From Candidatus Omnitrophota bacterium (GTDB taxonomy: Bacteria > Omnitrophota > Gorgyraeia > Gygaellales > Profunditerraquicolaceae), in assembly GCA_003598025.1 (NCBI GenBank), contig QZKH01000002.1:74133-138132 (forward strand): a stretch of DNA of 64,000 nucleotides. Reading direction: 5' to 3'. How positions within the stretch are numbered: the first letter of the stretch is position 1; each line of letters starts with the position of its first letter. The position numbers were made by a program, and so were the translations under genes. The notes under the pieces were generated by a model. The model worked only from the letters and a program-made list of their open reading frames with translations. It was not told where the DNA came from and ran no database searches. Shown in pieces: positions 2,509 through 62,414 of the stretch.

Positions 2509-3504
2509 ATGAGTGAAATAGATTTAGCCAAAGAGCAGATAATCAAAACAGGGAAAAGATTATATGAAGCCGGGCTTGCGGTTGCAAAGTCAGGGAATTT
2601 GAGCATAAAGATAGACCCTAAAACTATCCTTATAACAGCTACTTCAACGGCTTTGGGTCAGCTGAGCCCGGAAGATATTGTTTCGGTAGAATTAGATAGC
2701 CTTAAGTGCAGCGATAGAAATAAACCCAGTTCTGAACTCCCCTTGCATAGCCTCATCTATAAGAATTCCGCAGCTTGCGTAGTATTACATGCGCACCCGC
2801 CGTTAATTAACGGTTATTTTGCGGTAAATGATAATCTTGAGGCAATGACTTTTGAAACCAGGTTTTATTTAGGTAATGTCCCGGTCATAAAACAGGATAC
2901 CCCCACCGTTACTAACCCCGCACCCGTAATCGAGGCGCTGAAAAATAGCAATATAGTTGTCTTAAAAAACCACGGTGTGGTGTCTATTGCTGATAATTTT
3001 AAGGATGCACTTGCTTTAGTCGAGGCCCTTGAAGAAGCAATAAAATCAGCAGTGGTTGCCAGGCTGTTCAGCAAAGGCAACTTAAGCAATGCCGAAGAGG
3101 TCATTAAAGAAAGATTATCTTCTGATAAGGTATATCCTATGTTTTCAAAAGAGCATATACAGGCAATAGTCGATTTGGTCAATGATGACGATTTTATTGC
3201 CCAAAAGGGCAAGGAGCTTGATTTGACTGTAAACCTTGCAATAAAGCTTAACGAAACAAATCAGGCGTATAAATTTAATTTTGATAAAGGAAAGATAATC
3301 AGGCTGGACTGTGATGCGGATGCTCCTTTTGTAATTTCAGCTCCTGCGGCAGTCTGGGAACAGGTATTTTTAGGCAAGCTCGATTCATTTGTAGCTGTTA
3401 CGCAGGGGAAGATGAAATTGGAAGGCCAATTGGGCCAGCTTTCAAAATGGTATGTGCCCTTTAGCCGGCTCTTCGAAATATTTAAGCAGGTGAAATTTAA
3501 ATGA
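2509..3504 (+). CDS. class II aldolase/adducin-domain protein (MtnB dehydratase or Ald2-type MTRu-1-P aldolase) fused to a C-terminal SCP2 sterol-carrier-like domain
   Basis: The N-terminal 200 aa have the class II aldolase fold signature (LHAHPP..., HG). The C-terminal 110 aa resemble SCP2 (FVISAPAAVWEQVFLGKLDSFVAVTQGKMKLEGQLGQL). Confidence 0.6.
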   Translation: MSEIDLAKEQIIKTGKRLYEAGLAVAKSGNLSIKIDPKTILITATSTALGQLSPEDIVSVELDSLKCSDRNKPSSELPLHSLIYKNSAACVVLHAHPPLINGYFAVNDNLEAMTFETRFYLGNVPVIKQDTPTVTNPAPVIEALKNSNIVVLKNHGVVSIADNFKDALALVEALEEAIKSAVVARLFSKGNLSNAEEVIKERLSSDKVYPMFSKEHIQAIVDLVNDDDFIAQKGKELDLTVNLAIKLNETNQAYKFNFDKGKIIRLDCDADAPFVISAPAAVWEQVFLGKLDSFVAVTQGKMKLEGQLGQLSKWYVPFSRLFEIFKQVKFK

Positions 3505-4982
3505 ATACTAAATTATTAATAAACGGCCAGCTTATCGAGACGAAGCAAAAGGAAAGAATCCTGAACCCTTCAACAGGCAGGGTTATTGAAGAAGTTTCTC
3601 TTGCTTCAAAGGCTGAACTGGAGAATGCCCTTGAGTCAGCGCGCATTGCTTTTGACCGTGGCCAGTGGCCAAGGCTGGGGTATGATGAAAGAAGGGAATT
3701 CATCCTAAAGATTAAGCAGGGTATTTTGGATAATGCAGCAGAGTTGGCAAAGATAGAGACGCTTAACACCGGCAAGCCGATAAAAGAAACAACATTTATG
3801 GATATCCCGTCTTCGGCTAAGAGCTTTGAGTATATGGCGGATAATTTTGAGAAGTTCCTGAGTGAAGAGAAAATATCTATACAGCAAGAGGCAGAGTGCA
3901 GGCTTATGCGTTCGGCCCGCGGCGTAGCCGTATTGATAATCCCATGGAATTATCCTTTGTTAATCGCCTCCTGGAAACTCGCCTCTGCGCTGTGCGCAGG
4001 TAACACCGTGATTTTAAAACCTTCAAGCCTGACACCTTTAAGTGTTTTAGAATTAGCCAGGATCATACATGATATAGGCTTTCCAAAAGGAGCGGTAAAT
4101 ATTATAAACGCGCCAGGCGCCGAAGCCGGCCAGCTGCTTTGCGCAAGCAAGTCAGTTGATATGGTATCATTTACCGGTAGTAACGAGGTCGGCCGGCAGA
4201 TAATCAATTATACCTCCACTAATGTCAAGAAACTGATAATGGAGTTAGGAGGTAAATCTGCCAGCATTATTATGGATGATGTGGACCTTGATGTTGCAGT
4301 AAACAGCAATCTATGTTCGATATTTCTGAATCAGGGCCAGATGTGCACGGCGATGTCACGCATACTCGTTCATGAAAAAATTTACGATAAGTTTGTTGAA
4401 ACCTTTGTCAGAAAAACCAGGTCAATAAAACTAGGGCAGGGAGAAGATTTTCAGACTCAAATGGGGCCGTTGATCTCGATTTCACAGATAAAGAAAATCA
4501 TTACTTATATAGATAAAGCAAAAAAAGAAGGGGCACACGTTTGTTGCGGAGGCAGGGCGCCGGAAGACCCTTCCTTAAAAAATGGGTTTTATTTTGAACC
4601 GACCGTTATTACTAATGTAAATGCGCACATGGAGGTATTTAAAGAAGAGGTCTTTGGGCCGGTTGTCTGTATTATGAAATTCTCTTCCATAGCTGAAGCG
4701 GTTGAAATAGCTAATAACAGTGATTTTGCTTTGGCAGCGTCTATTTGGACCAATAATAAGGAAGTTTCCGATGAGATAGCAAATAAGATAAACGCCGGCA
4801 TTATCTGGATAAATACTTACGGTATGTTTTACAATCAGGCTCCTTACGGCGGTTTTAAGCAGAGCGGTTTCGGTAAAGAGCTTGGCCGGGAAGGTTTTCT
4901 TGAATATACCGGGCTTAAGAATGTCATAGTTGACCGGAACCCGCAAGGCAAGCCTCTGGTAAACTACTGGTATGGTTTTTGA
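3501..4982 (+). CDS. NAD(P)-dependent aldehyde dehydrogenase
   Basis: 493 aa with the ALDH glutamate motif (ELGGKS) and the catalytic Cys region (GQMCTA). Its start overlaps the preceding gene. Confidence 0.85.
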   Translation: MNTKLLINGQLIETKQKERILNPSTGRVIEEVSLASKAELENALESARIAFDRGQWPRLGYDERREFILKIKQGILDNAAELAKIETLNTGKPIKETTFMDIPSSAKSFEYMADNFEKFLSEEKISIQQEAECRLMRSARGVAVLIIPWNYPLLIASWKLASALCAGNTVILKPSSLTPLSVLELARIIHDIGFPKGAVNIINAPGAEAGQLLCASKSVDMVSFTGSNEVGRQIINYTSTNVKKLIMELGGKSASIIMDDVDLDVAVNSNLCSIFLNQGQMCTAMSRILVHEKIYDKFVETFVRKTRSIKLGQGEDFQTQMGPLISISQIKKIITYIDKAKKEGAHVCCGGRAPEDPSLKNGFYFEPTVITNVNAHMEVFKEEVFGPVVCIMKFSSIAEAVEIANNSDFALAASIWTNNKEVSDEIANKINAGIIWINTYGMFYNQAPYGGFKQSGFGKELGREGFLEYTGLKNVIVDRNPQGKPLVNYWYGF

Positions 4983-7173: not shown

Positions 7174-8199
7174 ATGAACATAAATAATTTCAACCTTGAA
7201 GAGTTGGAGAAAGTGTTGCGCGAATGTGGTCAGCCTGTTTTTCGCGCCCGGCAGATTTTTGCCTGGGTACATAAGAGGAAAGTCTTTGATTTCGGAAAAA
7301 TGTCGGATATGCCGTCAAGCTTAAGAGAAAAACTCAAAAATAAATATTCTATTCAGGATTTAAGCATAAGGAACATAACACGGTCAAGAGACGGAACGCA
7401 AAAATACCTTTTTTCTTTGAATGATGCCAATCTTATTGAAGCGGTGAATATCCCTGCGGCAGGCAGGGTTACGGGATGCGTTTCTACGCAAGCCGGCTGC
7501 AGGTTTGCTTGTAAATTTTGCGCAAGCGGAATTCAGGGATTTGTCAGGAACCTGGAATGTTCTGAGATAATTGAGCAGATTCTTGTCCTTGACAGAGATG
7601 CTTCCGGCGGCCTCACTAACCTCGTTTTTATGGGCACAGGCGAGCCGTTAGATAATTACGATAATGTTATCAAGGCGGCAAGGATAATAAATTCGCAATA
7701 CAGCATTAATCTTGGCGCAAGGAAGATAACCATTTCAACTTCCGGTGTCATTGCCGGCATAGAGCGTCTCAGTAACGAAGGGCTGCAAATCGAACTATCG
7801 GTTTCTTTGCATGCTGCAGATGATAGGACAAGGTCAAGCCTGATGCCCATAAACAAGGTTTATCCTCTAAGTGATCTGATTAAAGCCTGCAGAAAATATA
7901 CCGAGAAAACTAACCGGCAGATAACTTTCGAATACATCCTTATTAAGGGCATTAATTCTACATTGCAGGATGCGCTTAATTTAGTTAAAGTATTAAAAGG
8001 GTTATCCACAATCAAGGTTAATCTTATAGTATCTAATATCGTAGAAGAATCCGGACTTGAGCCGGCGGGCCTGAAAGATGCCGCTGCTTTTAAAGGGTGC
8101 CTTATTAAACACGGCATAAACGTGACGCTGCGTAAGCCGCGCGGACAGGATATTGATGCTGCCTGTGGGCAATTGAGGTTGAGATATGGGGAAGGATAG
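7174..8199 (+). CDS. rlmN: 23S rRNA (adenine2503-C2)-methyltransferase, radical SAM
   Basis: CRFACKFCASG radical-SAM cysteine motif with the conserved RlmN N-terminus (RARQIF.W) and C-terminal region. Confidence 0.9.
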   Translation: MNINNFNLEELEKVLRECGQPVFRARQIFAWVHKRKVFDFGKMSDMPSSLREKLKNKYSIQDLSIRNITRSRDGTQKYLFSLNDANLIEAVNIPAAGRVTGCVSTQAGCRFACKFCASGIQGFVRNLECSEIIEQILVLDRDASGGLTNLVFMGTGEPLDNYDNVIKAARIINSQYSINLGARKITISTSGVIAGIERLSNEGLQIELSVSLHAADDRTRSSLMPINKVYPLSDLIKACRKYTEKTNRQITFEYILIKGINSTLQDALNLVKVLKGLSTIKVNLIVSNIVEESGLEPAGLKDAAAFKGCLIKHGINVTLRKPRGQDIDAACGQLRLRYGEG

Positions 8200-8866
8200 T
8201 TCACTGTTCATAGTTCATAGTTCATGGATTAAGGCGGCAAATTTTATCTTGGCCTTATTTTTATTCTTTGGGATCATCGGGTGTCAGAAGAGGGATATAA
8301 AGAATATTGATTCTAAGGGCACGAATATCATTTGTTTCGGGGATAGCATAACCTTTGGTTACGGCGTTGACCCGGATAAAAGCTATCCTGCGGTTTTAGC
8401 CGGCATAACGCAGTGGCAGGTCATTAACGCAGGGGTAGATGGCGATACTTCAACCGATGGCTTAAACAGGATTAACAAAGATGTTTTAGAAAAAGACCCC
8501 TTACTTGTTGTTATTGAGTTCGGCGGTAATGATTTTCTCAAGAAAATACCAAAAACGCAAACCGCTGAAAACGTAAATAAAATGATTGATCATATACATG
8601 GACGCGGCTCAATGGTAGCGTTGTTAGATATAAGTACAGGCATTTTACTTAGCGATTACCATAAGCTTTTGAAAGACATAGCATCAGAAAGAGGCGCTAT
8701 TTTTATCCCAAAGATTTTAACAGGAATAATCACTAACCCCAGTATGAAGAGCGATTTCCTGCATCCTAATGAAAATGGTTACGCTGTTATCGCCCAACGT
8801 GTTTACCGCACAATTATCCCTTACCTGAATAGGAATTTTACTTTAAAGAGCATCGCCAGCAAATAA
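8186..8866 (+). CDS. SGNH/GDSL hydrolase lipoprotein (TesA/lysophospholipase L1-like)
   Basis: GDSIT block (IICFGDSITFGYG), a GGNDF block, a C-terminal DxxH-type region and a lipobox (GIIGC). The only in-frame ATG, at 8186, overlaps the rlmN stop and the heptamer repeat array. Confidence 0.7.
   Translation: MGKDSSLFIVHSSWIKAANFILALFLFFGIIGCQKRDIKNIDSKGTNIICFGDSITFGYGVDPDKSYPAVLAGITQWQVINAGVDGDTSTDGLNRINKDVLEKDPLLVVIEFGGNDFLKKIPKTQTAENVNKMIDHIHGRGSMVALLDISTGILLSDYHKLLKDIASERGAIFIPKILTGIITNPSMKSDFLHPNENGYAVIAQRVYRTIIPYLNRNFTLKSIASK
8198..8227. repeat. tandem heptamer array (TTCACTG TTCATAG TTCATAG TTCATGG) belonging to the dispersed GTTCATA/TATGAAC family
   Basis: Read directly in the sequence. 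Four 7-nt units at the rlmN/SGNH junction. Confidence 0.85.
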
Positions 8867-8929: not shown

Positions 8930-9409
8930 GTGATGAGAAATATCCTTCACACGCCAATCCCTGAGAAAAGATATCGGGCCAGGGCTTTTGCCCTGGTAGA
9001 GACGCTTCTTGCCACGGCGATAATGGTGTTTGGGCTTTGCGCGATACTGATAACCTACATATCCTGCCTTTTACTTATTACTACCGCTAAGAACATTAAT
9101 ATAGCTACTAATGCTACGTTAAGCCTGATGGAGGGGATACGCAGCAGCGATTTTACACAGATATCCGCTAATTATAACGGATTAAATTTTGTTTTAAACG
9201 ATATACCTTTAAGCAGGGGAGTAGTTTATGTTGATGATACAAATGCCGAGCTTTTACAGGTGGATATAAGCGTGTGTTGGCAGCAGGGTAACAGGGTAAT
9301 CGGAGAAGATGCAAATTTAAACGGTATGCTTGATCCGGGAGAAGATGTAAATGGTAACGGGATCATTGATTCCACGGTAAAGGCGACAACTTTAATAGCC
9401 AACAGGTGA
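8930..9409 (+). CDS. minor pseudopilin (type II secretion/type IV pilus, GspH/I- or PilV-like)
   Basis: Prepilin-type N-terminal motif (AFALVETLLA) followed by a hydrophobic helix. 159 aa. Confidence 0.5.
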   Translation: MMRNILHTPIPEKRYRARAFALVETLLATAIMVFGLCAILITYISCLLLITTAKNINIATNATLSLMEGIRSSDFTQISANYNGLNFVLNDIPLSRGVVYVDDTNAELLQVDISVCWQQGNRVIGEDANLNGMLDPGEDVNGNGIIDSTVKATTLIANR

Positions 9410-11690: not shown

Positions 11691-11742
11691 TTCTGCTACG
11701 CCCTAAGTAGGCTCAAGTAGGTAGGGCTTCGCAGCAATATAA

Positions 11743-11825
11743 TGCCGAGAGAGGGAGTTGAACCCTCACGAGGTTGCCCTCACCAGTTTTTGAGACTGGC
11801 GTGTATGCCATTCCACCACCTCGGC
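11743..11825 (-). tRNA. tRNA-Leu (anticodon CAA), class II with a long variable arm
   Basis: The reverse complement folds as a cloverleaf. Acceptor is GCCGAGG/CTCTCGGC. The anticodon stem CCAGT/ACTGG carries loop CTCAAAA. There is a long variable arm, a GAGGG-TTCAACT-CCCTC T-arm and discriminator A. Confidence 0.8.
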
Positions 11826-11946
11826 ATAAGTAGATTTGTTTTGAGGTAAGAATATTTACCAGGAAATGCTAGCTACGGCATTTGCTGATTTGCCTTACTT
11901 TTAGCTACAGCAAATCAATCCTGGGGCCTTTTAGCCCGAAGGATTT

Positions 11947-12270
11947 GGACCGTTTTACGCTCGTTTAGTGCCACTTCAAATTTTCCTTGTCGGAAAATAG
12001 TTATGTGGTGGCGCCGCACTCGCTGCCTCACTTGTCGCTCGGCTACGCTCGTTGCGGCATCCACCAATTTTTTCCTTACCGGAAAATTAAAATCCAAGGC
12101 ACTGAACTCGCTACGGTCCTTGTCGGACCGTTTTACGCTCGTTTAGTGCCACTTCAAATTTTCCTTGTCGGAAAATTAAAATCCAAGGCACTGAACTCAC
12201 TACGGTCCTTGTCGGACCGTTTTACGCTCGTTTAGTGCCACTTCAAATTTTCCTTGTCGGAAAATTTGAA
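11947..12270. repeat. 89-bp tandem repeat of about 3.6 units, each carrying two perfect hairpins that share a CCTTGTCGG core; it fills the spacer between tRNA-Ala and tRNA-Leu
   Basis: Units begin at 11947, about 12036 (diverged), 12125 and 12214. They contain GGTCC-TTGTC-GGACC and TTTTCC-TTGTC-GGAAAA hairpins. The last unit abuts the tRNA-Ala 3-prime end. Confidence 0.8.
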
Positions 12271-12271
12271 G

Positions 12272-12344
<73 letters not shown>

Positions 12345-12408
12345 ATTATTATATTTTGCGTTCGTCCCGAGCTACCTTCTCTTGTCTTATGTACCGAGGA
12401 GCAGCCCC

Positions 12409-12522
12409 ATATTTAAAATTTAAAGCTCAGTATACACTCCCAGTCCCGACGCTCATTTGCATTCGGTCGGGATGCCGACTTCACGTATTTTGTGAACGTC
12501 GGCACTGAGCTACAGCCCCATA
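12409..12522 (-). other. structured leader or pseudo-tRNA element upstream of tRNA-Ala that duplicates the tRNA-Ala 5-prime end
   Basis: CTGAGCTACAGCCCCAT (12506-12522) exactly repeats the tRNA 5-prime end at 12330-12346, and a third partial copy, GCAGCCCCATAT, lies at 12409-12420. A long-range AGCTCAGT/ACTGAGCT stem encloses two hairpins. Confidence 0.4.
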
Positions 12523-12544
12523 TTGGCTTAAATTTAGTGTATTA

Positions 12545-12573
12545 AATATAACATTCGGCTATAGCATTGTCAA
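12545..12573 (-). promoter_or_regulatory. sigma70-like promoter driving the minus-strand leader, tRNA-Ala, repeats and tRNA-Leu unit
   Basis: On the minus strand there is TTGACA (-35), a 17-bp spacer and TATATT (-10). It lies 18 bp downstream, in the minus sense, of the left heptamer array. Confidence 0.5.
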
Positions 12574-12594: not shown

Positions 12595-12690
12595 GTTCAT
12601 GGTTGATAGTTCAAGGTTCATGGACTATGTTAGCGCTTATAGCTATTAAGATTATCTATGAACTATGAACCATGAACAATGAACTATAAA
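12595..12690. repeat. inverted pair of heptamer arrays (GTTCATG GTTGATA GTTCAAG GTTCATG ... CTATGAA CTATGAA CCATGAA CAATGAA CTATAAA) serving divergent promoters
   Basis: Read directly in the sequence. Left array 12595-12622, right array 12656-12690, with a 33-bp spacer. Confidence 0.85.
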
Positions 12691-12701
12691 CCAAGTAGCC
12701 C

Positions 12702-13988: not shown

Positions 13989-16406
13989 ATGGAATATGAT
14001 TTTAAGGAAATAGAGAAGAAGTGGCAGGGATATTGGGATAAGAGCGGTCTATACCGCGCTGAATATTCTCCGGGCAATAAGAAATATTATTTGCTTGAGA
14101 TGTTCCCTTATCCTTCGGGCAAGATACATATGGGCCATGTAAGGAATTATGCCATTGCCGACGTTGCCGCAAGGTTTAAGTTGATGCAGGGTTATAATGT
14201 CCTGCATCCGATGGGTTTTGACGCTTTTGGCCAGCCTGCAGAAAACGCTGCAATCAAGAACAAAACCAAGCCCGATGCCTGGACCCATAAATGCATAGAC
14301 TGGATGCGCGTTGAGCTTAAGAAGATGGGTTTTTCTTATGATTGGGCAAGGGAGGTATCTACCTGCGACAGCACTTATTATAAGTGGAACCAATGGATAT
14401 TCCTTAAAATGTTTGAGAAGGGCCTTGCTTACAAGAAAGCCTCGAATGTAAACTGGTGCCCGAACTGCGAAACCACACTTGCTAATGAAGAAGTGATAAG
14501 TGAAGAGTGCTGGAGATGCCATAGCAAAGTTGAGCAGCGTAAACTTGACCAGTGGTTTTTAAAGATCACCGGATATAAAGAACGGCTGCTTGAAGATCTG
14601 GGAAAGCTTAAAAATTGGCCGGAGCGCGTTATTGCAATGCAGTCTAACTGGATCGGCAGGAGCCAGGGCGTGGAGATTTATTTTAAAATTAAAGGCAATG
14701 ATGATATCACGATACCGGTTTTTACCACCCGTGTAGATACTATATTCGGCGCCAGCTACGTAGTTTTAGCACCGGAGCATCCTTTGGTCGAGGATATTAT
14801 AAAAGGCATAGCACATGAGCCAGAGATCAGGAAGTTTATCAATAAGGTAAAGAAAGAAAAAAAGAACATACTCTCCAAAGAAGATGTTAAAAAAGAGGGT
14901 ATTTTCAGCGGCCGTTATTGTATCAACCCGGTGAATAATGAAACTATCCCTGTTTGGATCGGTGATTATGTTTTAATGGAGTATGGCACAGGCGCGATTA
15001 TGGCAGTGCCGGCTCATGACCAGAGGGATTTTCTTTTTGCTAAAGAACATGGGTTACCTATGAGAATAGTTATAAACAGTCCACAGTCCACAGTCCACAG
15101 TCCACAGGAATTGACTGAAGCGTATGAGGGGGATGGTTTCCAGGTTAATTCTGGGCAATTTGATGGATTGGATAACCAAAAGGCAAAGTCCGAGATTGCA
15201 AAGTGGATGGAGGCAAAAGGGATAGGCAAAATCCAGACACACTGGAGGCTGCGCGATTGGCTTATATCAAGACAGCGATATTGGGGTACACCTATACCGG
15301 TTATATATTGTGAAAAATGCGGGATCGTGCCTGTCCCATATCATGACCTGCCTGTTGAATTGCCGGCTGATGCCCCTTTTACCGGTGAGGGTGGCAGCCC
15401 CTTGGCAAAAGTGAAAAAATTTGTAAATGTCAAATGCCCTAAATGCAATGGCTCTGCCAGGCGCGAAACAGATACCATGGCTACTTTTTTTGACTCGTCG
15501 TGGTATTTCCTGAGATTCTGTTCCCCTTCTTTTAATGAGGCGCCTTTTGATAAGCAGGAGGCTAGATATTGGATGCCAGTTGACCAGTATATCGGGGGAA
15601 TAGAGCACGCTATTTTACATTTACTCTATTCACGCTTTTTTACTAAATTTTTCAAAGACCTGGGGATGGTGGAATTTGACGAGCCGTTTACATGCCTGCT
15701 TACACAGGGGATGGTCCTTAAAGAAGGCGAAGTAATGTCAAAGTCAAAAGGTAATATAGTTGACCCAGATTCGATTATAAAGAAATACGGTGCAGATGCC
15801 CTGCGGCTTTTTATACTTTTTGCCGCGCCTCCGGAAACTGAACTGGAGTGGGATGACAGGGGGATTGAGGGAGCATCCAAGTTCTTAAACAGGGTATGGC
15901 GCCTGCAGGATAACCTAAGGGATGGCCCGGCAGATAAATCAGGAGGGCTGGCCACCGCAAAAATACTGCATAAAACAGTTAAGAAAGTAACTGATGATAT
16001 AAATCAGTTTAAATTTAATACCGCGATTGCCAGTTTAATGGAGCTGACAAATGTTTTATATCAGTCCGGGGCAGATAAAGAGGATTATTCTACGTTAGTT
16101 GTGTTGCTGGCCCCGATAGCCCCGCATTTTGCAGAGCAAATTTGGGAGAATTTAGGGAACAAAGAATCTGTATTTAAGGCAAAATGGCCGCAGTATAACC
16201 CGGATTATCTTTTTGATTCTGTTGTTGATATAGTAGTCCAGGTAAATGGTAAGCTGCGCTCTAAGCTCGCAGTCCCGTTTGATGTTAGAGAAGAAGAGTT
16301 AAAAGAATTAGTCTTGCGTGATCAGAAGGTACAACCCTGGATTAGCGGTAAGAATATCAGAAGTTTTATATTCGTGCCCAACAAACTTGTCAACATCGTA
16401 GTCTGA
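13989..16406 (+). CDS. leuS: leucyl-tRNA synthetase
   Basis: HMGH motif ([12 protein letters not shown]) and KMSKS motif (VMSKSKGN). 805 aa with a LeuRS-type CP1/editing insertion. Confidence 0.95.
15077..15107. repeat. 7-nt tandem repeat (CAGTCCA, 4.4 copies) inside the leuS coding sequence
   Basis: Read directly in the sequence. It encodes [10 protein letters not shown] in a variable loop of LeuRS. Confidence 0.85.
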
Positions 16407-16839: not shown

Positions 16840-16936
16840 GTTCATAGTTCATAGATCATGGTTCATAGATAATTTATGCTGACGCTTACATTTATCCATG
16901 CTAAGACAACCAACCATGAACCATGCTCTATGAACC
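16840..16936. repeat. inverted pair of heptamer arrays (GTTCATA GTTCATA GATCATG GTTCATA ... CCATGAA CCATGCT CTATGAA) in the divergent intergenic region between the receiver gene and comEA
   Basis: Read directly in the sequence. Arrays at 16840-16867 and 16915-16936. Confidence 0.85.
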
Positions 16937-16989
16937 AATCCCTGTTAGAAATAACATCTGTATGCGTCTTATATCAGGAGGGCAAAAAT

Positions 16990-18695: not shown

Positions 18696-18710
18696 CCTGC
18701 TATCCGTAAC

Positions 18711-18731
18711 TATGAACTATGGACCATGAAC
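18711..18731. repeat. heptamer array (TATGAAC TATGGAC CATGAAC) upstream of the TPR lipoprotein promoter
   Basis: Read directly in the sequence. A TTGACA at 18756-18761 follows 24 bp later. Confidence 0.8.
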
Positions 18732-62302: not shown

Positions 62303-62344
62303 CCATGAACCACGAACTATGAACTATGAACTATGAACTATGAA
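62303..62344. repeat. heptamer array, six units (CCATGAA CCACGAA then CTATGAA four times), upstream of the flavodiiron gene promoter
   Basis: Read directly in the sequence. TTGACT (62362-62367) and TATAAT (62384-62389) follow. Confidence 0.9.
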
Positions 62345-62414
62345 CTAATATGCTATACCCTTTGACTATTATCAGCCCGCTGTTATAATGGGACAGGATA
62401 GGCGGAGGTGTAAT

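Follow-up and report, generated by a model that had tools for sequence, protein, structure and literature searches.

The region analyzed here is a 64,000-nucleotide stretch of DNA from a Candidatus Omnitrophota bacterium (NCBI GenBank assembly GCA_003598025.1, contig QZKH01000002.1, positions 74,133 to 138,132 of the forward strand), hereafter the window, within which positions are counted from the first letter. Its focus is the spacer between two transfer RNA (tRNA) genes, tRNA-Ala(GGC) and tRNA-Leu(CAA), both read from the minus strand. An earlier interpretation made from the letters of the DNA (the sequence-only reading) saw this spacer as filled by a tandem array of about 3.6 hairpin-bearing units of 89 bp, and made the array itself its subject. 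The array is four tandem copies of a structured RNA module, namely, two full copies of type A, one of type B, and one that is truncated. Among the 110 clusters of related modules, however, 90 contain a single copy, 13 two, six three, and one four, and the tandem arrangement is thus the least important part. The main result is an element that uses the 3′ end of a tRNA or of a transfer-messenger RNA (tmRNA) as the arm of a hairpin. In kind it is a structured tRNA-trailer element or a hairpin repeat, and, as far as sequence comparison defines it, its hallmark is that it is joined directly to a tRNA or tmRNA gene at the 3′ end, one of its arms being complementary to the tRNA.

Organization of the array

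Tandem Repeats Finder places the array at 11947-12266 (period 89, 3.6 copies, 77% matches, score 387), and a repeat search of the window recovers an 89-nt pair, 12070-12158 and 12159-12247, that is 97% identical, in agreement with the unit length and copy number first proposed. The repeat search also returns three 52-nt segments that are 100% identical (11947-11998, 12125-12176, and 12214-12265); this identity among units 1, 2, and 4 points to recent duplication. The core motif CCTTGTCGG occurs five times in the window, against 0.21 occurrences expected, always within the array, and longer hairpin patterns have no match in the window outside it. The array does not extend to tRNA-Leu as had been claimed, since about 120 nt of non-repeat sequence (11827-11946) intervene. 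It is, as the sequence-only reading held, co-oriented with both tRNAs and contained in their transcription unit, downstream of a promoter-like site (Table 1) and with no terminator-like site in the array or between tRNA-Ala and tRNA-Leu. The precursor that contains tRNA-Ala and the array probably also contains tRNA-Leu. Open reading frames (ORFs) of 60-84 aa that overlie the array are repeat artefacts. A clustered regularly interspaced short palindromic repeat (CRISPR) array was rightly dismissed at the outset, as the whole 89-bp period repeats, inter-hairpin segments included, which leaves no unique spacers; there are no cas genes among the neighboring ORFs of the window.

On the tRNA-sense strand, a full unit folds as a short hairpin, UUUUCC-GACAA-GGAAAA, followed by a long hairpin of about 53-60 nt, which in the units of the window is tipped by CGGUCC-GACAA-GGACCG. 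Folding of the minus-strand transcript, as originally suggested, gives z-scores of about -5 for each unit and -11 for the whole spacer. The same folds replace the two separate hairpins first envisaged in each unit with one short and one long hairpin, the GGTCC/GGACC stem being the tip of the latter. The GGTCC-TTGTC-GGACC hairpin attributed to every unit is real, but it is complete in two units only, as unit 3 is a distinct subtype and unit 4 is truncated.

Unit 1 adjoins the tRNA. The tRNA-Ala gene does not encode CCA; its acceptor strand ends ...CAGCUCC, followed by the discriminator A at 12272 and then CUU. The perfect stem noted earlier at this boundary exists, although it measures 16 bp rather than 15 and, instead of merely abutting the tRNA, reaches 3-4 nt into it (C71, C72, and A73). 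We refer to this hairpin as the clamp. Joined to unit 1, pre-tRNA-Ala is predicted to fold at -72.6 kcal/mol into the cloverleaf, a clamp beginning from A73, and the long hairpin, with zero-length linkers throughout; an alternative with the full 16-bp clamp and two acceptor pairs opened is predicted to be just 2.4 kcal/mol less stable.

The remaining units lie further from the tRNA. Unit 2 retains the 3′ arm of unit 1 (UUUGAAGUGG), and its short hairpin has a stem of only 6-8 bp. Unit 3 has the same architecture as the others with different stem sequences: its short hairpin is closed by the loop GGUAA (GGTAA in DNA), and its long hairpin reads GGTGGATGCCGC...GCGGCGCCACC or GGUGGAUGCCGC...GCGGCGCCACC. 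The 3′ arm of its short hairpin, AAUUGGUGG, is the complement of a CCACCAAUU end, which the tRNA-Ala of the window does not have. This type B also occurs in L041, L045/L105, L005, L112, and L088 (locus numbers are ours). It is a genuine subtype and not a decayed copy, given that long hairpins of types A and B co-occur in the arrays of the window, L045/L105, L112, and L088. Unit 4 comprises a short hairpin and the 5′ half of a long one, and stops inside the apical stem.

Table 1. Features of the tRNA-Ala to tRNA-Leu region, in window coordinates
Feature	Position	Strand	Basis or remark
Promoter-like site TTGACA-17-TATATT, upstream of the tRNA-Ala unit	12545-12573	minus	11/12 matches, TG extension; consensus match only
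tRNA-Ala(GGC)	12271/2-12344	minus	ARAGORN, Rfam
Unit 1, type A, adjoins tRNA	12187-12278	minus	Model R1 89.5 bits, E 3.9e-21; folds; 16-bp inverted repeat
Unit 1 clamp hairpin, arms (perfect 16-bp inverted repeat)	12259-12274 with 12238-12253	minus	Loop GACAA 12254-12258
Unit 1 long hairpin	12187-12239	minus	Apical loop GACAA 12209-12213
Unit 2, type A, internal copy	12098-12186	minus	R1 72 bits; 97% identical to unit 1 over 89 nt
Unit 2 short-hairpin loop	12165-12169	minus
Unit 2 long-hairpin apical loop	12120-12124	minus
Unit 3, type B subtype	12010-12096	minus	R1 46.3 bits; fold
Unit 3 short-hairpin loop	12076-12080	minus
Unit 3 long hairpin	12007-12065	minus	Loop GACAA 12032-12036
Unit 4, truncated type A	11947-12009	minus	52 nt 100% identical to units 1 and 2
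Unit 4 short-hairpin loop	11987-11991	minus
Non-repeat spacer with several local hairpins, array to tRNA-Leu	11827-11946	minus	About 120 nt
tRNA-Leu(CAA)	11742-11826	minus	ARAGORN, Rfam; starts GC, ends ...GGC-A; no element

A family fused to tRNA and tmRNA 3′ ends

Searching beyond the window for the unit or its hairpins, as the sequence-only reading had advised, revealed a widespread family. A scan of one genome per species with the pattern TTCCGACAAGGAA-N20-50-CCGACAAGG gave 48 loci, of which 23 are real; about half are chance hits within coding DNA of unrelated bacteria (Gemmiger, CheA-like genes, and others) and were set aside. The real loci belong to Candidatus Omnitrophota, 'Planctomycetales', and Brocadiia metagenome-assembled genomes (MAGs) and to one unclassified MAG, and almost all show the 53-56-nt spacing seen in the window. 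In at least 20 of the 23, the element is on the strand of a tRNA or tmRNA and starts at its 3′ end or a few nucleotides from it. The upstream tRNAs include Ser, Ala, Asp, Leu, Tyr, Val, and Cys, and the upstream gene in L016 is tmRNA.

A second scan, of metagenomes, used the pattern GCGAGCGT..CCGACAAGG..AGCGAGCG, which constrains the long hairpin only and requires neither the short hairpin nor a tRNA. It returned 74 loci, 72 of them real, and nearly all first copies nonetheless have a clamp hairpin with a tRNA T-arm and acceptor directly upstream, while the 3′ end of a tmRNA meets the element in at least eight. A covariance model (R1) identifies 105 copies among the metagenome loci, plus 33 across the genome loci and the window. 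Taken together, the pattern scans and then the model yield more than 130 copies at about 95 loci, hosted by at least 12 tRNA species and tmRNA in two phyla, and the family is specific to Omnitrophota and Planctomycetota. A plain local tandem duplication of spacer DNA without wider meaning, to which the 100% identity of the 52-nt stretches in units 1, 2, and 4 might point, and to which the array would have been reduced had its unit been absent elsewhere, thus deserves next to no credence: all of these copies lie in other organisms and share a conserved, covarying structure.

The family appears to have gone undescribed so far. Rfam 15 returned only tRNA, tmRNA, and ribosomal RNA (rRNA), both for the window (at the gathering threshold and at E up to 10) and for 17 related loci (at the gathering threshold), apart from a few matches to microRNA (miRNA) and plastid families that are noise. 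We found no description of the element in the literature. Two patterns gave no real match in viral contigs, the one candidate (L123) being a coding Asp-Lys-Glu repeat, and blastn gave none in phage and plasmid records.

Some sites have been kept over long periods. The window shares synteny with L048, a locus of an uncultured Planctomycetales MAG; amino-acid identities are 59% for RlmN, 53% for the GDSL protein, 54% for the TIM-barrel protein, and 73% for leucyl-tRNA synthetase (LeuRS), and L048 has tRNA-Ala(ggc), unit 1, a unit 2 broken by about 170 nt, a partial unit 3, and a textbook intrinsic terminator. On synteny alone, the window would most likely derive from a related, planctomycete-like organism; exact look-ups of its TIM-barrel protein and LeuRS returned no record. 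Because the two loci are syntenic and share the same array, the element has persisted at tRNA-Ala(ggc) across considerable divergence. The same is seen in the Thr-Tyr-Gly cluster, where more than 12 loci have the element in the Tyr-Gly spacer.

Architecture of the module

The 5′ arm of the clamp consists of C71, C72, and N73 of the tRNA, three further nucleotides (CCA if encoded, otherwise mostly U-rich), and an A/U-rich stretch ending in CC. The 3′ arm is its exact complement and varies with the tRNA, which gives a stem of about 15 bp; CCGUUGAAA pairs with UUUCAACGG, for example, and CCACCAAAA with UUUUGGUGG. The arm adapts to tRNAs with G73 (CGG). The end of tRNA-Pro (G72) pairs with UGGUCG (L099) or uses a tandem G.A, and with the U73 tRNAs (Cys and Gly) the hairpin is shifted onto the encoded C74-C75-A76. 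The loop is 13 nt away from the discriminator in 49 of 65 measurable cases, and 12-14 nt away in 57. Directly after the clamp, with no linker, comes the long hairpin, which reads GGCACU, N, AA, GCGAGC, a variable bulge, and a 7-bp apical stem. GCGAGC pairs with GCGAGC across a tandem G.A, which has two Watson-Crick pairs on either side and so departs from the consensus of a k-turn.

Covariation supports both hairpins. A MAFFT alignment of 24 first copies has 95.5% of its cells paired, as opposed to 31-46% in slid controls, and 22 of the 31 pairs have changed on both sides; RNAalifold recovers the same helices from this alignment. When the 105 metagenome copies are aligned with the model, 95.6% of cells are paired (slid controls 37-46%) and 28 of 31 pairs show compensatory change, although this alignment, being fitted to the model, leans to the structure of the model. 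The apical stem covaries freely (GGCCC, GCCCC, AGCCC, CCGCC, GGUCC, and others), and the closing pairs of the short hairpin covary as well (CC/GG, GC/GC, AC/GU, and CU/AG). The tRNA-sense strand has 56 G-U pairs versus 26 A-C.

Both hairpins are capped by a G-R-Y-R-A pentaloop closed by C-G, mostly GACAA. Among the short-hairpin loops, which were unconstrained in the metagenome search, about 70 are GACAA, nine GGCAA, seven GAUAA, two GACGA, and one GGUAA, so that the first G and the last A never vary. The boxB pentaloop of phage P22 is also GACAA and takes up a GNRA fold from which the C is looped out (PMC12550061), and to judge from their sequences all loop variants observed keep this GNRA-like boxB fold.

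The identity with the P22 loop, together with the presence of an element in the rRNA spacer between tRNA-Ile and tRNA-Ala (L019), could suggest a boxB/nut-like antitermination site or an unconventional terminator of tRNA operons. We regard both as highly improbable. The G-R-Y-R-A loops agree with boxB, whereas the position does not and there is no conserved adjacent boxA, the GUUAAAC stretch being 1 to 5 nt long; elements also follow monocistronic tmRNA genes. The next feature after the element is a co-oriented tRNA in 35 of the 110 clusters and a canonical intrinsic terminator in 21. Such terminators lie downstream in L048, L062, L095, and L010, at just 8-15 nt in L062 and L095. An element placed directly before a canonical terminator is hardly one itself, its stems are AU-rich and have no U tract, and the tRNAs downstream must be read through. 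In the array of the window, there is likewise no GC-rich hairpin with a U tract that would make an intrinsic terminator.

Host RNA selectivity

The element is unevenly distributed among the tRNA and tmRNA genes of these loci. It follows all eight tRNA-Tyr genes, 15 of 21 for tRNA-Ala, six of seven for tmRNA, and seven of 13 for tRNA-Cys; frequencies are lower for tRNA-Ser (11/31) and tRNA-Leu (9/26), and the element is rare or absent after tRNA-Gly (1/20), tRNA-Thr (0/14), tRNA-Arg (0/6), and tRNA-Lys (0/6). It occurs on 42 of 83 tRNAs that start with GG, and so end in CC, versus one of 42 that start with GC, from which it follows that a CC-R end is nearly necessary, albeit not sufficient. The tRNA-Leu(CAA) of the window, which is without an element, fits this CC-R rule.

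Variants and neighboring structures

Several additional structures accompany the module. A GAUYCCnnGC...GGRAUYAAUUC hairpin recurs just downstream of it in L020 (after each of three tRNA-Ser elements), L048 (1960-2010), L049, and L073, and these may be longer, three-hairpin variants of the family. A small hairpin with the loop AAUGU, CCGAAAYAAUGURUUUCGG, lies beside or inside elements in L016, L034 (about 1225-1262), L054, L082, and L117. In L117, it stands in place of the inner part of a type B long hairpin, and in L034, it lies between tRNA-Ala and an element-carrying CCTCCACCA fragment. The short-hairpin loop of L102 (about 3434-3523) is inverted, reading CCC-UUGUC-GGG for CCC-GACAA-GGG, which looks like a DNA-level inversion within a palindrome.

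At four loci, a small non-tRNA hairpin of about 31 nt, GG(Y)AGGUUCGC..CGACU(R)CCCG, stands next to the element (L077, about 930-1053; L078; L092, 8111-8301, where it occurs on both sides of the element; and L120, 6680-6796). It covaries between GUAG/CUAC and GCAG/CUGC. These loci could represent an independent gene for the module or else the remains of a decayed tRNA.

Two observations concern tRNA-Gly. In L035 and L012, the tRNA-Gly(UCC) that comes after the element in the Thr-Tyr-Gly cluster has the 5′ end GCGAGCGUAG, and its first 9-10 nt equal the conserved strands GCGAGCGU and GUAGCGAGCG of the long hairpin, a likeness that may be chance or a hint at the origin of the element. Downstream in L084, ARAGORN does not call a tRNA-Gly-like sequence (GCGAGCGUAGUUCAAUGGUAGAACA...) in which a UUUUUCC...GGAAAAA hairpin seems to follow the anticodon stem and split the gene; the gene could be disrupted, or the insertion could be intron-like.

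A proposed structured tRNA trailer

The element lies on the same strand as the tRNA in the transcribed spacer or trailer of a tRNA operon, as would a trailer RNA. We interpret the module of the window as a co-transcribed, structured trailer of tRNA-Ala that is probably recognized by a protein and tied to 3′-end processing, a function read from its anatomy and one to which we assign a probability of roughly one half. Of the possibilities raised by the sequence-only reading, an RNA-processing scaffold or a protein-binding array is the most plausible class of function on the same anatomical grounds. Most of the remaining doubt concerns what the module actually does, and less its nature as an RNA.

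A possible mechanism can be outlined as follows. An RNA-binding factor or an endonuclease would recognize the two identical GNRA-like loops, and the fixed 13-nt distance from loop to discriminator would act as a ruler or clamp that determines how and when the tRNA-like 3′ end matures. The clamp would block access of RNase P until it is removed, and as both discriminator and trailer would be double-stranded, processing of the 3′ end before the 5′ end may be enforced. Processing would release a stable double-hairpin RNA. Extra units would be products of duplication or exchange that are dispensable for function. A bolder version combines these steps into a lineage-specific maturation or quality-control device, in which the clamp makes discriminator and trailer double-stranded, a dedicated protein or nuclease holds on to the loop and measures from there to its cut site, and 3′ and 5′ processing of a subset of tRNAs and of tmRNA is put in order as a stable double-hairpin RNA is freed. 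We consider it unlikely in this specific form.

A related reading shifts the emphasis from the tRNA to the released RNA. The element could encode a trans-acting small RNA (sRNA) or protein sponge, for which the tRNA provides the promoter and a handle for 5′ processing, and an RNase Z-type cut after the discriminator would free an RNA of about 85 nt with both hairpins. A protein would be titrated or recruited by its two boxB-like loops, at a dose that increases with the number of tandem copies, in the manner of E. coli 3′ETS-leuZ or of small nucleolar RNAs and miRNAs linked to tRNAs. Location in tRNA spacers and trailers and the two identical loops of a protein-binding type are in accord with this reading, as is the predicted fold, in which the 5′ end of the product would be protected because it is base-paired after cleavage at N73. 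Arrays would multiply the product, and the four loci with the small non-tRNA hairpin (L077, L078, L092, and L120) resemble stand-alone genes composed of promoter-like TTTTATAAGTA, hairpin, and element. Yet the sRNA or sponge would have no known target or partner, and it leaves unexplained both the pairing of the 3′ arm with C71-N73 of the tRNA and the avoidance of tRNAs that do not end in CC-R. We hold it to be rather doubtful as the primary role; it overlaps with the structured trailer proposed above, and the two are not mutually exclusive.

Repeat-like behavior

A number of observations weigh against a processing function. Only 67 of the 190 tRNA and tmRNA genes in these loci carry the element, and with about a third of genes so equipped, it is no general requirement for tRNA maturation; in the Cys-Leu-Val cluster, the tRNA that it follows (Cys, Leu, or Val) differs between genomes. 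Truncation, interruption (L048), and tandem amplification all occur among the copies. The 3′ arm is preserved in internal copies, which lack the long 5′ arm and have a short stem of 5-8 bp. Such dynamic copies look like those of a duplicative, possibly selfish repeat. One element, the sole antisense case (L001), lies at the 5′ end of tRNA-Ser, which can be explained by an inversion of tRNA-Ser between its acceptor arms. Others are detached from an intact tRNA. The L019 element, about 100 nt from tRNA-Ile, and those of three near-identical metagenome loci (L065, L081, and L097) stand behind a degenerate tRNA 3′ fragment in the tRNA-Ile/tRNA-Ala spacer. The L034 element lies about 50 nt past tRNA-Ala behind the CCTCCACCA fragment, and the elements of L077, L078, L092, and L120 follow the small non-tRNA hairpin with promoter-like TTTTATAAGTA upstream. 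The excess of G-U over A-C pairs is only about 2:1, and a hairpin of sense-strand single-stranded DNA (ssDNA) would give a similar pattern. Perfect complementarity of the arms could also arise through quasi-palindrome template switching at the DNA level, without selection on RNA.

These points converge on the main rival to the structured trailer, a selfish, non-autonomous hairpin repeat comparable to the REP/BIME, Correia, and mitochondrial double-hairpin elements discussed below. It would spread as DNA, with a preference for the 3′ edge of tRNA-like genes ending in CC-R or with survival there alone. A trans-acting enzyme would recognize its hairpins as ssDNA, or they would just be palindromes maintained by template switching, and co-transcription would be incidental. 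Such a repeat readily accommodates the patchy, lineage-variable distribution among tRNAs, the arrays of up to four copies with truncated and insertion-interrupted members, and the copies beside tRNA fragments (L019, L065, L081, and L097) and the non-tRNA hairpin (L077, L078, L092, and L120). The inverted loop of L102 is a typical DNA-level hairpin event. In addition, the 3′ arms of internal units in L087 and L114 match other trailers, and the match of such internal arms, including that of window unit 3, to the trailers of other loci or to older trailers would imply exchange or successive insertion.

Against a selfish repeat, we noticed no transposase or recombinase beside the copies (a systematic ORF scan covered the neighbors of the window), and there are no terminal inverted repeats or target-site duplications. 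Copies away from a tRNA are absent from the window, and copies away from tRNA or tmRNA ends are almost absent elsewhere; none were found in the viral contigs, phages, and plasmids searched. Orientation is essentially always sense, the lone antisense case being explicable by inversion. The loops obey the GNRA-like RNA rule G-R-Y-R-A, and orthologous sites are kept across deep divergence (more than 12 loci share the element in the Tyr-Gly spacer, and the window and L048 share it at tRNA-Ala(ggc), with LeuRS 73% identical). We regard selfish spread as a tentative possibility, with the odds leaning against it.

Significance

Maturation of the 3′ ends of bacterial tRNAs and tmRNA, by RNase Z, RNase E, and exonucleases and by CCA addition, is deemed well understood, and it has been studied almost solely in Proteobacteria and Firmicutes. 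That a conserved, covarying module is built onto the acceptor end of tmRNA and of a defined subset of tRNAs, in two phyla that have received little study, suggests an as yet unknown factor or layer of control in the maturation of stable RNAs. The covariance model, the loop rule, and the distance rule together offer a concrete, testable handle. Were the element a selfish repeat, it would be an unusual one that targets tRNA-like ends and uses their sequence as its own hairpin arm. Either way, it is a candidate for a new Rfam RNA family.

Other features of the window

Between the promoter-like site and the real tRNA-Ala, the region 12345-12545 contains two extra copies of the tRNA-Ala 5′ end on the minus strand (12394-12410 and 12505-12521), one exact (AUGGGGCUGUAGCUCAG) and one degenerate (AUGGGGCUGCUCCUCGG). 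The first extra copy runs on as GGGGCUGUAGCUCAG, followed by about 62 nt with two hairpins (12458-12504) and then CUGGGAG, and resembles the 5′ part of a tRNA whose D-loop has taken up an insertion. These copies suggest an earlier duplication or rearrangement at the locus and a structured leader of about 190 nt. The neighboring ORFs encode RlmN, a GDSL lipase, a DUF4900 protein, a TIM-barrel protein, a response regulator, and LeuRS.

The window also contains unrelated repeats. Heptamer tandem repeats of one family occur in both orientations at 8196-8225, 12656-12691, 15076-15107, 16840-16937, 18708-18731, and 62305-62347 (CTATGAA, ATGAACT, GTTCATA, AACTATG, and ATAGTTC, plus ACAGTCC), some near gene ends and some over ORFs. 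They resemble the short tandemly repeated repetitive (STRR) sequences of cyanobacteria, but the genome here is planctomycete-like. The heptamers raised the suspicion of a cyanobacterial origin and of an NsiR1-type sRNA array, both rejected in view of the lack of an Rfam match and the synteny with a Planctomycetales MAG. A 36-bp repeat at 9302-9370 (1.9 copies, 78% matches) lies in ORF 8930-9409 and encodes a short Gly/Asp/Asn-rich peptide repeat.

Comparison with known systems

Various known elements share single features with the module. A ToxI-like array of a type III toxin-antitoxin system was rejected, as tRNA-Leu lies downstream and there is no toxin-like ORF. A CsrA site (ACAAGGA) was rejected as well, its GGA being unconserved in the long hairpin, where GGG or GGC is common, and its GG paired. 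Likenesses to the 3′ region of 16S rRNA (ACAAGG...CCGUAG) and to human Y1 RNA (GGUCCGA...GUAGUGAGUU), noticed by eye, are taken to be chance, the stretches involved being specific to the window and not conserved in the family. A self-cleaving ribozyme is unlikely, given no Rfam ribozyme match and no junction or pseudoknot in the two-hairpin architecture. Miniature inverted-repeat transposable elements differ in that the inverted repeats here are hairpin arms, one of which is the tRNA, and there is no target-site duplication.

The sequence-only reading had also offered a REP-like element. Repetitive extragenic palindromic sequences and bacterial interspersed mosaic elements (REP/BIME), Correia/NEMIS elements, and enterobacterial repetitive intergenic consensus (ERIC) sequences are, like the module, short, repeated, extragenic hairpins that are co-transcribed, can cluster, and feature a GTAG motif, and RNase III or RNase E cleaves some of them. 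The fit is loose. These repeats number tens to hundreds of copies, scattered over the 3′ ends of protein-coding genes, whereas the core motifs of the element occur only in the array within the 64-kb window and are elsewhere tied, essentially only in the sense orientation, to tRNA and tmRNA 3′ ends, with almost no copies away from tRNA-like 3′ ends. The element has no terminal inverted repeats or target-site duplications and takes one arm from the tRNA. GUAG is conserved in it, 3′ of the apical stem and inside the long hairpin; in REP/BIME, which are associated with a RAYT transposase, GTAG stands 5′ of an imperfect palindrome.

The double-hairpin elements and GC clusters of fungal mitochondria are small two-hairpin elements of compact genomes, patchy and apparently mobile, that often lie near tRNA genes. 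Unlike the module, they are organellar, unrelated in sequence, and not fused to the acceptor end, and we know of no pentaloop rule for them. In yeast, the RNase III Rnt1p is anchored by an AGNN tetraloop and measures a fixed number of base pairs to its cut. That system is eukaryotic, relies on another loop, and has its cleavage shown experimentally, in contrast to the hypothetical ruler proposed here.

The boxB sites of the N proteins of phages P22 and lambda share the GACAA pentaloop, and the G-R-Y-R-A rule fits their GNRA-like fold with the third base looped out (PMC12550061). The element differs from boxB in having two loops per unit, a 15-bp AU-rich stem that incorporates tRNA nucleotides, neither boxA nor an antitermination context, and a lineage-wide location on host chromosomes. 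An archaeal, lineage-specific palindrome found at a fixed distance after about half of tRNA genes has been proposed as a 3′-maturation signal (PMC5217627). It lies 10 bp off the tRNA and is single and short, with no second hairpin and no complementarity to the tRNA, unlike the element. The 3′ external transcribed spacer 3′ETS-leuZ, from the glyW-cysT-leuZ operon of E. coli, is like the element a co-transcribed external or internal spacer at the 3′ side of a tRNA in an operon. The element could be released by the machinery that processes tRNAs. 3′ETS-leuZ is a single, locus-specific sequence that base-pairs with sRNAs through Hfq, whereas the element is a conserved module that follows at least 12 tRNA species as well as tmRNA and pairs with the tRNA's own 3′ end.

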